Part shown: positions 13,501-34,441 of the stretch, one piece after another | Numbering within the stretch: position 1 is the first letter of the stretch | Layout of the letters: every line of letters begins with the position of its first letter | Origin: an uncultured Actinomycetales bacterium | GTDB lineage: Bacteria > Actinomycetota > Actinomycetes > CAXTBU01 | DNA: 45,708 nucleotides | Direction of reading: 5' to 3' | Assembly: GCA_964242885.1 (NCBI GenBank) | Contig: CAXTBU010000009.1 | Coordinates: forward strand, 5,015 to 50,722 | Made by a program: the position numbers and the translations under genes | Notes under the pieces: generated by a model | What the model saw: the letters and a program-made list of their open reading frames with translations, nothing else | Databases searched by the model: none | Told to the model about the DNA's origin: nothing

Positions 13501-14018
13501 TACCGGGTCCCCTCAATCTCGGTGTCCGCCCCGGTCGCCACGGTGGCGACCGGCACGGCAGCTTGGCTCTGGTCGGTCTGGACGGCGGCCGCCGAGGCGC
13601 GGCGGCGGGTGTTGCCGGCCGTGCGCCGGGTGGCCCGCGCGGTGGCGGTACCGGCGCGGGCCTGCACCACCACGGTGATGTGGCTCGTCCGCTTGAGGAT
13701 CGTGAACGCACGACCCTTGCCGCCGGGACGGAAGCGCTTCATCGTCGGGCCCTCGTCGACGTAGGCCTGGCTGACCCAGAGCGAGTCCGGGTCCAGCTGC
13801 TTGTTGTTCGCCGCGTTCGCGACGGCGCTCTGGATCAGCTTGCGCACCGGCTCCCCCGCGGCCTGCGGGGCGAACTCCAGCAGCGCGACGACCTCGTCGG
13901 CCTTGCGGCCGCGGACCAGGTCCACGACGCGGCGCACCTTCTGCGGGGTCATCCGCACGTAGCGCGCCTGCGCCAGGGCGGCGTCGGCCGGCAGGTGCCG
14001 TGCCTTGTTCTCAGCCAT
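13500..14018 (-). CDS. rplV: 50S ribosomal protein L22
   Basis: [40 protein letters not shown]. Confidence 0.98.
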
Positions 14019-14076
14019 CGTTTCCTCTGTCTGCGATCTGGGGTGTTCTGCTGGGCGTCCGGGCGGCGTCGGCGCG

Positions 14077-14358
14077 TCAGCGCCGGCGGGCCTTCCGGTC
14101 TTCCTTGACGTGGCCGCGGAACGTCCGCGTCGGCGAGAACTCGCCGAGCTTGTGCCCGACCATCGACTCGGTCACGAAGACCGGCACGTGCTTGCGCCCG
14201 TCGTGCACCGCGATGGTGTGTCCGAGCATGTCCGGGATGATCATCGAGCGGCGCGACCAGGTACGGATCACGTTCTTGGTCCCGGCCGCGTTCTGGACGT
14301 CCACCTTCTTCTGCAGGTGGTCGTCGACGAACGGGCCCTTCTTCAGGCTGCGTGGCAT
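14077..14358 (-). CDS. rpsS: 30S ribosomal protein S19
   Basis: [34 protein letters not shown]. Confidence 0.99.
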
Positions 14359-14369
14359 GTCCGGTCCCC

Positions 14370-15200
14370 TCAGCGCTTCTTCCGGCGACGCCGGACGATC
14401 AGACGGTCACTGGCCTTGCCCGGCGTGCGGGTCCGGCCCTCGGGCTGGCCCCACGGGCTCACCGGGTGGCGGCCCCCGGAGGTCTTTCCCTCTCCACCGC
14501 CGTGCGGGTGGTCGATGGGGTTCATCGCGACACCACGCACCGACGGCCGACGGCCGAGCCAGCGCGCGCGGCCGGCCTTGCCGAGGTTGATGTTCGACTG
14601 CTCGGCGTTCCCGACCTCGCCGACGGTCGCGCGGCAGCGCGCGTCGACGTTGCGGATCTCGCTGCTGGGCATCCGGAGCTGCGCGTACGGGCCCTCCTTG
14701 GCGACCAGCTGCACGCTGACACCGGCGGACCGGGCGATCTTGGCCCCACCACCCGGCCGCAGCTCGATCGCGTGTACGACGGTGCCGACGGGGATGTTGC
14801 GCAGCGGCAGGCAGTTGCCCGGCTTGATGTCGGCGTCCGGCCCGTTCTCCACGGTCGCGCCCTGGGTCAGCCGGTTCGGCGCCAGGATGTAGCGCTTCTC
14901 GCCGTCCACGTAGTGGAGCAGCGCGATGCGCGCGGTGCGGTTCGGGTCGTACTCGATGTGCGCGACCTTCGCCGGCACGCCGTCCTTGTCGGCCCGGCGG
15001 AAGTCGATCACCCGGTAGGCGCGCTTGTGGCCACCGCCCTGGTGGCGGGTGGTGATCCGGCCGGTGTTGTTGCGGCCACCCTTGCGCGGCAGCGGGCGCA
15101 GCAGCGACTTCTCCGGGGTCGACCGGGTCAGCTCGACGAAGTCGGCGACGGATGCGCCGCGGCGCCCCGGCGTCGTCGGCTTGTACTTGCGGATGCCCAT
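14370..15200 (-). CDS. rplB: 50S ribosomal protein L2
   Basis: [37 protein letters not shown]. Confidence 0.99.
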
Positions 15201-15269
15201 GAGGTGTCTTCCCTGTCGCTCAGGCCGTGCGGTCGGTCAGGTGGTCTGCGGTGCCCGGTGCAGTGCGGC

Positions 15270-15593
15270 TCACGAGCCGGCCTGCCCGAAGATGTCGATC
15301 CGGTCGCCCTCGGCGAGGGTGACGATCGCGCGCTTGGTGTCCTTGCGCCGGCCGATGCCGAACTTCGTGCGCTTGGCCTTGCCCTGCCGGTTCAGCGTGT
15401 TCACGCCGATGACCTTGACCTTGAACGCGGCCTCGACGGCCGCCTTGATCTCGGTCTTGTCCGCACCGGGCTGGACGATGAACGTGTAGGTGTTCTGGTC
15501 CAGCAGCGCGTAGCTCTTCTCCGACACGACCGGGCGCAGCAGCACGTCGTAGGGGTTCGTGCGGGACAGTGCCCGCTCCGGCAGCGTGCTCAT
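15270..15593 (-). CDS. rplW: 50S ribosomal protein L23
   Basis: [29 protein letters not shown] 15593 overlaps the rplD stop. Confidence 0.96.
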
Positions 15594-16312
15594 GCCTGGG
15601 CCTCCGTCGTCTCGGGTGCCGTCGTCTCGGGTGCCGTCGTCTCGGGTGCCGTCGTCTCGGGTGCCGTCGCCGTGCGCGCGCTGCGGGCGACGAACTCGTC
15701 GATCGCGGCGCGGGTGAACAGGACGTCGTCGGAGCACATGACGTCGTAGGCGTTGACCTGGTCCGACATCAGCACGTGCGCCCGGGCCACGTTGCGCAGG
15801 CTCAACGCCGCGGCGGACTCGGTGCGGCTGAGCACCACCAGCGGCCGGCGGACGGTGCTCACGGCCTCGAGGACGGCCAGCGCGGCCTTCGTCGAGGGCT
15901 CGGCGCCGACGGGCACGAACGCGTCGACGACCTTGACCCGGTCGGCACTCGCGCGGTCCGACAGCGCCCCGCGGGTGGCGGCCGCGATCATCTTCTTCGG
16001 GGTCCGCTGGGCGTACCCGTGCGGCGTCGGCCCGTGCACGACCCCGCCGCCGGTGAACTGCGGAGCGCGGATCGAGCCCTGGCGCGCGCGGCCGGTGCCC
16101 TTCTGCTTGTACGGCTTCTTGCCACCGCCGCGGACCTCGCCGCGCGTCTTCGTCGAGTGGCTGCCCTGGCGCGCCGCCGCCAGCTGGGCGACGACGACCT
16201 GGTGGATCAGCGGCACGTTGACGGGGACGTCGAACAGGCCCGACGGCGCCTCGAAGGTCCCGGCGGCAGCGCCGTCGGACCCGAGGACGGTCAGCACGGT
16301 CGGCTCGGTCAT
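15590..16312 (-). CDS. rplD: 50S ribosomal protein L4
   Basis: [36 protein letters not shown]. Confidence 0.98.
15604..15669. repeat. 15-bp perfect tandem repeat x4 encoding (TAPET)n at the L4 C-terminus
   Basis: ccgtcgtctcgggtg repeated four times plus a partial copy. Confidence 0.92.
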
Positions 16313-16995
16313 GCTCCGGCTCCCTTCGGGGCCTTGCTCGCCGAGCGCAGCACGATCAGTGCGCCACGCGGGCCCGGGACGGCGCCCTTGACGAGGACCA
16401 GCCCGCGGTCGGCGTCGACGGCCTGCACGGTGAGGTTCTGGGTGGTGGTCGTCACGTTGCCCATCCGGCCGGCCATCCGCATGCCCTTGAACACCCGGCC
16501 CGGCGTCGAGCAGCCGCCGATCGAGCCCGGGGACCGCTGCTTGCGCTGGGTGCCGTGGGTGGACTCCAGGCCCTTGAACCCGTGGCGCTTCATGACGCCG
16601 GCGGTGCCCTTGCCCTTGCTACGGCCGACGGCGTCGACGTACTCGCCGGCGGCGAAGGTCTCGGCCGTTACCTCCTGGCCGAGGCTGTACTGACCGGCGT
16701 CGGCCGTGCGGATCTCGACCAGGTGGCGGCGCGGGGTGACCCCGGCGCGGGCGAAGTGGCCGGTGCGCGGCTTGTTCACCTTGCGGGGGTCGATCGCGCC
16801 GAAGCCGAGCTGGACGGCTGAGTAGCCGTCGGACTCGGACGTGCGCACCTGGGTGACGACGCACGGGCCGGCCTGGACCACGGTGACGGGGACGAGCCGG
16901 TTGTCGCCGTCCCACACCTGGGTCATCCCCAGCTTCTGGCCGAGGACGCCCTTCACCACTGGTCCGGCTGCTGCCGGCACGGAGGGGGAGCTCAT
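16309..16995 (-). CDS. rplC: 50S ribosomal protein L3
   Basis: [44 protein letters not shown] 16995 with GGAAGG RBS. Confidence 0.97.
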
Positions 16996-33066: not shown

Positions 33067-33127
33067 CGTCGGGCCTCCGCGATCAGAAGCCGACTGGGTC
33101 GCCGGCTCGGATGTCGTCCTGTCAACG

Positions 33128-33180
33128 GAACAGAGAAGCCCGCCGTTCCCCATCCTCTCGCGAGGCGGGGAGCGGCGGGC
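33128..33180 (-). terminator. Intrinsic terminator after rplA
   Basis: GCCCGCCGCUCCCC..GGGGAACGGCGGGC stem followed by UUCUCUGUU. Confidence 0.7.
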
Positions 33181-33199
33181 GGCAGGGTGTGCGCGGCGG

Positions 33200-33907
33200 T
33201 CAGGCCTCGGCCGGCACGACCTTGGTCACTGCCGGGTCGACCTCGATGCCCGGGCCCATCGTCGTGGAGACGGTGGCCTTGCGGACGTAGCGGCCCTTGG
33301 CCGCGGCCGGCTTCAGGCGGAGGACCTCGTCCAGTGCCGCGCCGTAGTTCTCGGCCAGCTGCTGGGTGGTGAACGAGGTCTTGCCCACGATCAGGTGCAG
33401 GTTCGAGTTCTTGTCGACGCGGAACTCCACACGCCCGCCCTTGATCTCGGTGACGGCGCGGACGACGTCGGGGGTGACGGTCCCGGTCTTCGGGTTCGGC
33501 ATCAGGCCGCGGGGCCCGAGGACCCGGCCCAGCCGCCCGACCTTGCCCATCAGGTCCGGGGTGGCGACGACGGCGTCGAAGTCCAGGCGGCCGCCCGCGA
33601 CCTCGGCGATGAGCTCGTCCGAGCCGACGATGTCGGCACCGGCGGCCTTCGCGGCCTCGGCCCGGTCACCGGTGGCGAAGACCAGCACCCGGGCGACCTT
33701 GCCGGTGCCGTGCGGGAGGTTGACCGTCCCGCGGACCATCTGGTCGGCCTTGCGGGGGTCCACGCCCAGGCGCATGGCGACCTCGACGGTGGCGTCGTAC
33801 TTCGTGACCGAGGTGTCGCGGGCCAGGTGCACGGCATCGAACGGGGTGTACAGCCGGTCGGCGTCGATCTTGGCCGCGGCGGCGGTGTAGGCCTTGCTGC
33901 GCTTCAC
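33200..33907 (-). CDS. rplA: 50S ribosomal protein L1
   Basis: [49 protein letters not shown] 33907. Confidence 0.98.
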
Positions 33908-33932
33908 GGAGTTGCTCCTCGCAGTGGTGGTG

Positions 33933-33971
33933 AGGTCGTGGTCGGCGGGCTCCGGGAGCCCTCCCACGTCG
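33933..33971 (-). promoter_or_regulatory. Putative L1-binding leader between rplK and rplA
   Basis: GUGGGAGGGCUC-CCG-GAGCCCGCCGACCAC stem with a GGAG-side internal loop just upstream of rplA. Confidence 0.55.
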
Positions 33972-34009
33972 TGCTGGTCAGCCGGCCGGCGGCCGGGCAG
34001 GGCCCGGGG

Positions 34010-34441
34010 TCAACCGGTGATCGTGATGCCCATCGACCGCGCCTGGCCGGCGATGGTCCGCTCGGCGGCGTCGATGTCGCTGACGTTCAGGTCGGGCATC
34101 TTCGTCTGCGCGATCTCGTGGATCTGCGCCTGGGACAGCGTCCCGACCTTGTCCTTGTTCGGAGCGGACGACCCCTTGGCGACACCCGCCGCCTTCTTGA
34201 TCAACTGACCGGTCGGCGGCGTCTTGGTCCGGAACGTGAACGTCCGGTCCTCGAGGATCGTGATCTCGACCGGCACGATGCTGCCCCGCTGGGACTCGGT
34301 CGCGGCGTTGTAGGCCTTGACGAACTCCATGAGGTTGACGCCGTGCGGACCGAGAGCGGTACCCACCGGCGGCGCCGGCGTCGCGGCGCCGGCCTGCAGC
34401 TGCACCTTGACGATGGCAGCGACCTTCTTCTTCGACGGCAT
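34010..34441 (-). CDS. rplK: 50S ribosomal protein L11
   Basis: [30 protein letters not shown]; candidate -10 CACACT at 34523-34528. Confidence 0.99.

Follow-up and report, generated by a model that had tools for sequence, protein, structure and literature searches.

Sequence comparisons suggest that an uncultured soil-type actinomycete, deep-branching in the class that holds Streptomyces, is probably insensitive by nature to several natural antibiotics that it does not make. We lean slightly towards target-based intrinsic insensitivity in a non-producer, in which two drug pockets would have been remodelled by clade-fixed substitutions. The first would be the GE2270A/thiomuracin pocket in domain 2 of EF-Tu, altered by G257S, R262K, V274A and G275A, and the second the i+1 site and bridge-helix-cap pocket of RNA polymerase (RNAP), altered by D675E, N677G and N684G in the beta subunit with M697V and A779T in beta'. 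In both pockets, side chains or backbone space needed by the inhibitors would be taken away or filled, with every catalytic residue kept. Such a cell would be tolerant of EF-Tu-directed thiopeptides and probably also of GE23077-, pseudouridimycin (PUM)- and salinamide-type RNAP inhibitors from neighbouring organisms. From the positions of these substitutions we infer weaker binding of the drugs and a history of selection by antibiotics.

The window, a 45,708-nucleotide stretch of the source genome, holds the single-copy rplK-rplA-rplJL-rpoBC-rpsLG-fusA-tuf-S10 block. The MAG-like genome assembly (3.21 Mb, ~71% G+C; 135 contigs) is 92.8% complete and lacks rRNA genes, and all six motif-bearing genes are single-copy in it. 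NCBIfam models, in a scan from which L22 was left out, identified nine genes as equivalogs of named housekeeping proteins. The tuf product (17656–18849, 397 aa, encoded by the sole EF-Tu gene) matched EF-Tu equivalog and subfamily models at 720–732 bits (TIGR00485, 720.7 bits against a cut-off of 522.4). Residues were numbered by pairwise alignment to E. coli K-12, with EF-Tu and L11 in mature numbering and S12 K88R in Met-included numbering (K87 mature). The first-pass annotation had singled out nine motifs with resistance-type residues in housekeeping copies. All nine were found, once each, on the minus strand, as are all genes given here, at the E. coli positions given below and with the codons it had reported (GGG and GGC in RpoB, CGC in S12). 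Within the block, rplL (30652–31038), the rplJ ORF (31091–31945, with an L10 match that begins at residue 68) and rplA (33200–33967) were also recognised by NCBIfam models.

The source is fragmented and MAG-like, with one other genome of its family in the sample, and such residues might stem from an assembly or binning artefact or from a generally long-branch lineage, the alternative raised in the first pass; we judge this very improbable. Of 120 database homologues, 5 carried the same RpoB motifs, which the family-mate genome also has, and the EF-Tu motifs recurred in 13 further database proteins. A second assembler's independent contig, from a run (X1) that may be the source sample, spanned 28100–28543 with no differences. 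Because the same motifs occur in other homologues and genomes and this contig is identical, the drug-site residues are not assembly errors. The suggestion that they are old fixed alleles was borne out: they are common to a clade reaching 84–87% regional identity and to another genus of the same family. Nor is the lineage generally divergent. When deviations at columns at least 95% conserved were compared with medians, the source genome had three in RpoB (median 3), none in EF-Tu and none in S12, and the control proteins EF-G (fusA, 19008–21161, 717 aa; NCBIfam) and S7 (rpsG, 21226–21696; NCBIfam) had none (median 2, 40 sequences) and one (median 1), respectively, so that all five lay at or below the median.

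The RpoB changes overlap published resistance determinants. In the available parts of the literature, salinamide resistance sites are listed at beta 569, 675 and 677 and at beta' 690, 697, 738, 748, 758, 763, 775, 779, 780, 782 and 783. GE23077 sites are given there as beta 565, 566, 681 and 684, and PUM sites as beta 565, 681 and 684 and beta' 786, particular weight being given to beta 677, 681 and 684. Compared with E. coli, RpoB (rpoB, 26532–30074, 1180 aa; NCBIfam) carries N573G, S574Y, D675E, N677G and N684G. Six of 454 columns at least 95% conserved deviated, three of them among the seven salinamide/GE23077/PUM determinant columns (p = 4.4 × 10−5; this and the other Fisher values are inflated, since the drug sets were picked after the residues had been seen in the first pass). 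D675E, N677G and N684G (28236–28265, in the motif at 28230–28271) were common to all four full-length clade RpoBs in the enrichment alignment, and the three-change motif was present in all five clade homologues and the family-mate genome. Every one of the 166 outgroup sequences kept N684, and N684G was likewise absent from 300 other genomes of the phylum, the motif occurring in one of 301, namely the source genome. A span of 10 residues holds all three changes, which may represent one correlated event.

Substitution at the GE23077 and PUM determinants consisted of beta N684G, with beta E565, G566 and M681 and beta' T786 and M932 unchanged. Four of the 14 listed salinamide sites were substituted (beta D675E and N677G, beta' M697V and A779T), and beta' R738A or R738V is a further change in a sister subclade. 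RpoC (rpoC, 22470–26504, 1344 aa; NCBIfam) showed no enrichment, with 0 of 13 deviations at columns at least 95% conserved in the salinamide/PUM set (p = 1). A779 (A779T, 23889–23891, in the motif HGTRKG, 23880–23897) and M697 are only moderately conserved. Substitutions were thus enriched above chance at drug sites in RpoB and in EF-Tu, and not in RpoC. The main rifamycin determinants, which we take to be V146, D516, H526, S531, I572 and R687, were all canonical, with only S574Y (28569–28571, in the motif IGLIGYL, 28566–28586) and T525A present in the rifamycin comparison.

EF-Tu differs from the E. coli protein by V231I, R233S, G257S, V258I, R262K, V274A, G275A and V276L, and its motifs are GRIESG (18139–18156), VTSIEMF (18055–18075) and DNAALLL (18004–18024). 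The part of a review available to us (PMC8183687) lists 12 GE2270A contact residues. Four of them are altered here, by G257S (18067–18069), R262K (18052–18054) and V274A with G275A (18013–18018), and each of these four substitutions is fixed across the clade, being present in all 12 full-length proteins. In the outgroup, G257 stands in 124, R262 in 117, V274 in 101 and G275 in 125 of 129 sequences. At columns at least 95% conserved (217, including 10 contacts), two of four deviations in the source genome were GE2270A contacts (Fisher p = 0.011), as were three of eight at columns at least 90% conserved (p = 0.0027). Zuurmond et al. (2000) reportedly found that G257S and G275A make E. coli EF-Tu resistant to GE2270A. 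Changes at G257 and G275 in a true EF-Tu that is a cell's main or only copy are what a GE2270A-insensitive protein of producer type would show; here both positions are substituted in the only EF-Tu of the assembly.

The S257/A274/A275 set also occurs in Nonomuraea phyllanthi and a further genome (G222), both nested in Streptosporangiaceae, and in Kineococcus. As a housekeeping allele it was found in 2 of 401 genomes of the class sample, the source genome and G222. The EF-Tu tree implied at least two origins, and three changes once the pocket segment was removed. Between lineages with the set, identity was 79.7–83.8% in the pocket segment vs 84.1–86.6% in the rest of EF-Tu. Because identity in the pocket segment is not raised, the shared allele points to convergence rather than transfer; on this tree the set is of independent origin in Nonomuraea, and probably so in Kineococcus. 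The positions that we take to be the pulvomycin sites (R230, R333 and T334) and kirromycin sites (L120, Q124, Y160, G316, Q329, A375 and E378) were canonical at 10 of 10 in the source genome and in 12 of 12 clade proteins. R233S (18142–18144) lies near the pulvomycin sites and is itself no listed site.

Could the same residues have arisen with antibiotics uninvolved? An early change in the RNAP active centre or in EF-Tu domain 2, followed by compensating neighbours, with fixation through drift or through adaptive change in catalysis or tRNA binding, is a possible explanation that we hold to be distinctly less probable than even. The RpoB changes are adjacent and, by the part of the published contact list available, share one salinamide pocket with beta' A779T, and all the changes arose on the clade stem. 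RpoC deviated at 9 positions vs a median of 2.5 in the same comparison at columns at least 95% conserved. M725I (24051–24053), here with R731T (24033–24035), co-varies with substitution of R731 in unrelated genera, M725I being found with R731A in Lentzea and Corynebacterium. The inner clade has also lost the entire second zinc site of beta', all four cysteines being replaced (C814D, C888D, C895S and C898S, 23523–23786), which indicates relaxed or altered constraint on this subunit. The salinamide pocket varies in other lineages too (N677 to H, K, S or M; R738 to K, T, G, W or N). Against such co-evolution, the EF-Tu set arose two to three times independently at the same contacts, a recurrence not expected from drift; RpoB and EF-Tu are elsewhere no more divergent than the median; N684 is invariant throughout the outgroup; and the changes reach five different targets in a single lineage.

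The remaining targets are ribosomal. In S12 (rpsL, 21763–22131, 122 aa; NCBIfam; motif GGRVRDLPG, 21856–21882), position 88 is Arg (K88R, codon CGC, 21868–21870), as in natural rpsL 88R variants; Arg was found in 5 of 41 other sequences and is shared with the family-mate genome. K43 was not among the changes reported at determinant positions. The available passages of a survey (Ngo et al. preprint 2026) attribute ~70% of cases to 88R among the 7.6% of species with rpsL variants, and count 96 Actinomycetes species with an rpsL resistance variant. L11 (rplK, 34010–34441; NCBIfam; motif PPVGTALGP, 34346–34372) has P25T (34358–34360) and Q29P (34346–34348) and keeps P21; according to the part of the source available, Pro21, Pro25 and Gln29 contact thiostrepton and nosiheptide (PMC11731312). 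T25 occurred in 5 of 27 other sequences and P29 in 6 of 27; the pair was present in five, the sixth having Ser at 25, and is common in Acidimicrobiia and elsewhere. L22 (rplV, 13500–14018, 172 aa) has R88G and A89G at the hairpin tip (motif RPGGKGR, 13710–13730), common to 1 of 12 other sequences (Phytoactinopolyspora). The L22 assigned, with uncertainty, to the family-mate genome (contigs C210 and C451) is canonical, RPRAQGRA. Loss of M82-K83-R84, or a hairpin mutation already documented, is what we take to mark macrolide-resistant L22; here M82-K83-R84 is kept, and R88G/A89G matched no documented determinant in the literature examined.

RpoB S574Y was also found in 5 of 71 other sequences, and RpoC A779T recurs in unrelated lineages. 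Because each recurs in this way, S12 K88R, L11 T25/P29, the L22 Gly-Gly pair, S574Y and A779T are, taken alone, ordinary polymorphisms by their distribution. L11 P25T/Q29P, at thiostrepton-class contacts, and S12 K88R, at a streptomycin determinant, would fit the same picture of target-based insensitivity, both being common natural variants. At 45 drug-determinant positions the source genome departed from the majority residue 13 times, the next lineage 7 times and the median lineage 4 times (27 lineages), a ranking inflated by the same post hoc choice of drug sets. The first pass had rightly placed residues at salinamide, GE23077, PUM and GE2270A determinants, at L11 thiopeptide contacts and at S12 88. 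Its description of the resistance as broad does not hold, given canonical rifamycin, pulvomycin and kirromycin sites, an intact L22 M82-K83-R84 and the recurrent variants just named.

The first pass had also proposed a producer. Here the organism would make an EF-Tu-directed thiopeptide, an RNAP inhibitor or both, and protect its own targets in the manner of the Planobispora rosea tuf, a reading that we consider improbable. Its precedents, from the parts of the sources available, are a housekeeping tuf that is the resistance gene in P. rosea, with the cluster between rpoC and rpsL (PMC3943966), and an L11 with P21V, P25K and Q29P in a persiathiacin producer (PMC11731312). Here just 339 bp separate rpoC and rpsL, and no thiopeptide cluster was found beside tuf or elsewhere in the 92.8%-complete assembly. 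A search of that assembly found no thiopeptide, NRPS or PKS machinery: no Condensation domain (control positive in 4 of 14 genomes), no Lant_dehydr_N (a weak negative, its control being positive nowhere), a single FabF-like KS, and a single orphan YcaO surrounded by the housekeeping genes for fumarase, PhoH-PIN, UPP synthase, HlyIII and DUF255. The window's flanks hold NusG, an aminotransferase, adenosine deaminase and KdpABCD, and no biosynthetic cluster. A cluster could sit in the missing part of the genome.

Tentatively, and less probably than not, such insensitivity may extend to a whole uncultured actinomycete family. Its RNAP would escape both the 'privileged' i+1 target of PUM and GE23077 and the salinamide pocket through N677G, N684G and D675E with beta' partners, and its translation would be hardened against both thiopeptide classes through the EF-Tu pocket and the L11 contacts. 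If so, such inhibitors would be a chronic selective force in the family's habitat, and viable, low-cost resistance to nucleoside-analogue RNAP inhibitors would exist in nature.

Among known systems, the E. coli GE2270A-resistant mutants G257S and G275A reportedly likewise have substitutions in the domain-2 pocket. The tufR of the GE2270 producer P. rosea is, in the available part of the source, a resistant str-operon tuf (PMC3943966), and the present gene is similarly a bona fide housekeeping EF-Tu in the str operon; unlike in P. rosea, the assembly has no pbt/tpd cluster, either in the rpoC–rpsL gap or anywhere else. In S. coelicolor, according to the passages available, P. rosea tuf beside the host tuf gave no resistance, and an attempt with host tuf1 bearing four point mutations from P. 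rosea reportedly failed; because of these precedents, the residues alone may not suffice for resistance. The L11 of the persiathiacin producer Actinokineospora sp. UTMC 2448 shares Q29P, and two of the three contacts are changed in ours, which keeps Pro21 and has Thr rather than Lys at 25 (PMC11731312, in part). As in natural rpsL 88R and rifampicin-type rpoB variants (Ngo et al. preprint 2026; Bolourchi et al. 2025, quoted there), a native resistance-type residue sits in a housekeeping gene; the available passages of those surveys cover streptomycin and rifampicin, the GE23077, PUM, salinamide and GE2270A sites lying outside them. Laboratory GE23077-, PUM- and salinamide-resistant RNAPs of E. 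coli and S. pyogenes, as far as the available passages describe them, are altered at positions also changed here (beta 675, 677 and 684, beta' 697 and 779). Residue 684 is Gly here vs Lys684 in the named laboratory mutant, and no change is seen at the laboratory positions beta 565, 566 and 681 and beta' 786. Unlike those laboratory mutations, the substitutions here are natural, combined in one enzyme and fixed in a clade.

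The block of genes in question lies on the minus strand and runs from nusG (34595-35725), at the highest coordinates, through rplK (L11, 34010-34441), rplA, an ORF of 360 aa (32071-33153), rplJ, rplL, rpoB (26532-30074), rpoC (22470-26504), rpsL (S12, 21763-22131), rpsG, fusA and tuf (EF-Tu, 17656-18849) to the S10 operon, which includes rplV (L22, 13500-14018). Nine window genes were equivalogs of named proteins in an NCBIfam scan that left out L22, with tuf matching both the EF-Tu equivalog and subfamily models. The six target genes are present in one copy apiece in the source assembly (3.21 Mb, 135 contigs, 92.8% complete, G+C approximately 71%), which contains no rRNA genes, so that sites such as A1067 and A2058 are absent from it. 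The 360-aa ORF has a coding-type G+C by codon position (0.74/0.69/0.92) and a basic N-terminal stretch followed by a hydrophobic one, and had no match in Pfam. The nusG ORF encodes 376 aa, and its NusG domain does not begin until residue 197, which makes for a long N-terminal extension unless translation truly starts further in.

The first-pass annotation had reported resistance-type residues in RNA polymerase (RNAP), EF-Tu and ribosomal proteins, and this observation was confirmed: all nine motifs occur, once each, in the window, with the codons stated. Alignment of each protein to its E. coli K-12 counterpart gave the changes D675E, N677G, N684G and S574Y in RpoB (beta), A779T in RpoC (beta'), R233S, G257S, V274A and G275A in EF-Tu (mature numbering; a comparison of conserved columns added R262K), K88R in S12, P25T and Q29P in L11, and R88G and A89G in L22. 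In E. coli, G257S and G275A are reported to make EF-Tu resistant to GE2270A. Reported GE2270A contacts include D216, G222, R223, T256, G257, E259, F261, R262, N273, V274, G275 and L277 (review PMC8183687). Salinamide resistance sites listed in one study include beta 569, 675 and 677 and beta' 690, 697, 738, 748, 758, 763, 775, 779, 780, 782 and 783, with beta 675, beta 677 and beta' 779 among the contacts (PMC4029172). Determinants described for GE23077 include beta 565, 566 and 684, and in S. pyogenes also 681 (PMC3994528); those for pseudouridimycin include beta 565, 681 and 684 and beta' 786, with beta 677, 681 and 684 and beta' 932 named as important (bioRxiv 10.1101/106906). Pro21, Pro25 and Gln29 are given as thiostrepton and nosiheptide determinants on L11 (PMC11731312).

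We compared departures at conserved columns with these drug sites in alignments extended by full-length database proteins only (98/120 for RpoB, 81/120 for RpoC and 85/120 for EF-Tu). The P-values are inflated, because the drug sets were picked with the residues already in view and because the RpoB changes are neighbours. RpoB had six departures in 454 conserved columns (K503R, T525A, D675E, N677G, N684G and V771I), three of them within the seven salinamide, GE23077 and pseudouridimycin columns (inflated P = 4.4 × 10−5, one-sided Fisher test). EF-Tu had four in 217, two of them within the ten contact columns (inflated P = 0.011); at ≥90% conservation, contact columns made up three of eight departures (inflated P = 0.0027). 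None of the 13 RpoC departures in 462 conserved columns fell within the 11 columns of its set (P = 1). Enrichment at drug columns was thus found for RpoB and EF-Tu and not for RpoC. At 45 determinant positions in five proteins the source genome departed from the majority residue 13 times, the most of 27 lineages (next 7, median 4); these were the lineages with RpoB, RpoC, EF-Tu and S12 complete at the 45 positions, L11 being counted where present. The motif L-M-G-x-G-M-Q-R-Q-A occurred in one of 301 sampled phylum genomes, namely this one.

A generally long-branch lineage, the alternative proposed alongside the original observation, was rejected on leave-one-out counts of departures at columns ≥95% conserved. 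The source genome had three departures in RpoB (median 3; rank 41 of 73), none in EF-Tu (58 sequences), S12 (43 sequences) or EF-G (median 2; 40 sequences), and one each in S7 and L22 (median 1 for both). L4 and L11 had two each (median 1 for both). RpoC, with nine, ranked 18 of 82 (median 2.5); zinc-site cysteines account for four of these departures.

The annotation had read these residues as broad target-based resistance or as the mark of a producer; this interpretation was supported in part, with neither breadth nor production being supported. The rifamycin hot spots of RpoB are canonical, as are the pulvomycin and kirromycin positions of EF-Tu in the source genome and in 12/12 proteins of its clade. 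The S12, L11 and L22 variants are ordinary: 88R occurred in 5/41 other S12 sequences, T25 and P29 in 5/27 and 6/27 other L11 sequences, mostly Acidimicrobiia, and G88 and G89 in 1/12 other L22 sequences. According to a preprint, 7.6% of species carry an rpsL resistance variant, which is 88R in about 70% of cases. S574Y in RpoB (5/71) and A779T in RpoC (3/80) also recurred in other sequences, and salinamide-pocket residues vary in other lineages as well. As for production, searches of the 92.8% complete genome found no Condensation domain and no Lant_dehydr_N, the latter a weak result as the control was positive nowhere; there was one KS, FabF-like, and one YcaO, sited among housekeeping genes. 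The window flanks encode NusG, an aminotransferase, an adenosine deaminase and KdpABC-KdpD. Self-resistance in the pseudouridimycin producer is described as thought to depend on exporters. The best reading of the sequences is a non-producing lineage whose natural insensitivity would be target-based. There is a strong case that its EF-Tu would be insensitive to GE2270-class thiopeptides, and it is plausible that its RNAP would be insensitive to GE23077, pseudouridimycin and salinamide.

The alleles are not confined to one genome. The 14-residue RpoB motif and IGLIGYL were both present in 5/120 nearest database homologues (84-95% regional identity), the remaining 115 being canonical, and TSIEMF with DNAALLL occurred in 14/120 EF-Tu homologues, the window's own protein included. 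Four RpoC homologues (P0241-P0244, 92-98% regional identity) have I725, T731 and T779 and have lost four cysteines, as in the source genome; two at 75% (P0245, P0246) share the three residues, retain the cysteines and carry R738A or R738V. The closest named RpoC relatives among the matches listed, at 74-75% identity, include Streptomyces, Kitasatospora, Kineococcus and Actinomadura. RpoC collection scans reached a best identity of 75%, with no clade member among the matches listed, and served as outgroups only. The 40 relatives compared included one family-mate, G001, all others belonging to the same class only. G001 shares the RpoB motifs, RpoC T779, S12 R and L11 TALGP; its L22 motif is canonical, but the assignment of those contigs to G001 is uncertain. 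Two G001 contigs (C210, C332; 77-79% identical to the window) span one and the same stretch of the S10 operon, so the bin may hold two organisms. A second assembler's contig from run X1, which may be the source sample, matched 28100-28543 with 0 differences. Runs X2-X20 were rejected as a guide to habitat: they covered small shares of the stretch, and their contigs came from other organisms with canonical codons.

RNAP showed further differences. M725I or M725L in beta' accompanies R731T, A or S in the source genome (24033-24053) and, at loci L018, L055 and L020, in Lentzea, a Corynebacterium MAG and a Brevibacterium, a pattern that suggests coupled positions. All four cysteines of the second beta' zinc site are replaced (C814D, C888D, C895S and C898S; 23523-23786) in the source genome and its four closest homologues and not in the sister subclade, and the first site is intact; among 163 aligned rows, the second site is also missing in a Brevibacterium and two Acidimicrobiia MAGs. 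The rpoB RRDR (approximately 28700-28760) reads SSLAHKRR against AGLTHKRR in the outgroup consensus, and T525A, common to 3/4 clade proteins, adjoins H526. Pseudouridimycin and GE23077 are described as valued for the few viable resistance substitutions at their site (PMC3994528, bioRxiv 10.1101/106906). A natural RNAP with Gly at both bacteria-specific Asn would reveal an escape route from that site and the partner changes that make it tolerable. Natural target-site variant surveys, such as those for streptomycin and rifampicin, are here extended to further drug classes.

In EF-Tu, drug-site changes are restricted to the GE2270A pocket. The set S257, A274 and A275, together with K262 or N262 and D284, was also found in Nonomuraea phyllanthi, genome G222 and a Kineococcus. 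We built two quick IQ-TREE phylogenies with SH-aLRT support only; both included three canonical outgroup rows from unpublished genomes (L092, L093 and L106 from G007, G031 and G023), on which alone no claim hangs. The first (73 rows, divergent paralogue L115 left out) nested the Nonomuraea pair in Streptosporangiaceae (support 96-99) and joined Kineococcus weakly to the source clade (87). The second tree, of 61 rows, left out approximately 70 residues of the pocket along with nine distant rows and four paralogues. In it, Kineococcus separated from the source clade; the allele needs three changes there, at least two of them forced by strongly supported branches. Pocket-segment identity among these lineages was not raised. 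From these change counts and the unraised segment identity we conclude that the allele is convergent, as judged from sequence comparison. The class-wide pattern DNAALLLRG had four other matches, three of which (G254, G079 and G103) were rejected as carriers, being EF-Tu3-like paralogues without S257; these (L212, L213 and L214; family f3) keep Gly at 257 and sit on a very long branch.

An allele that has arisen repeatedly would offer a ready sequence signature for predicted GE2270-class insensitivity, which could steer resistance-aware mining and the choice of thiopeptide expression hosts. For the GE2270 producer Planobispora rosea, the gene for resistant EF-Tu is described as the housekeeping tuf of the corresponding operon, and the biosynthetic cluster as lying in the gap from rpoC to rpsL. 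The rpoC-rpsL gap of the source genome is 339 bp.
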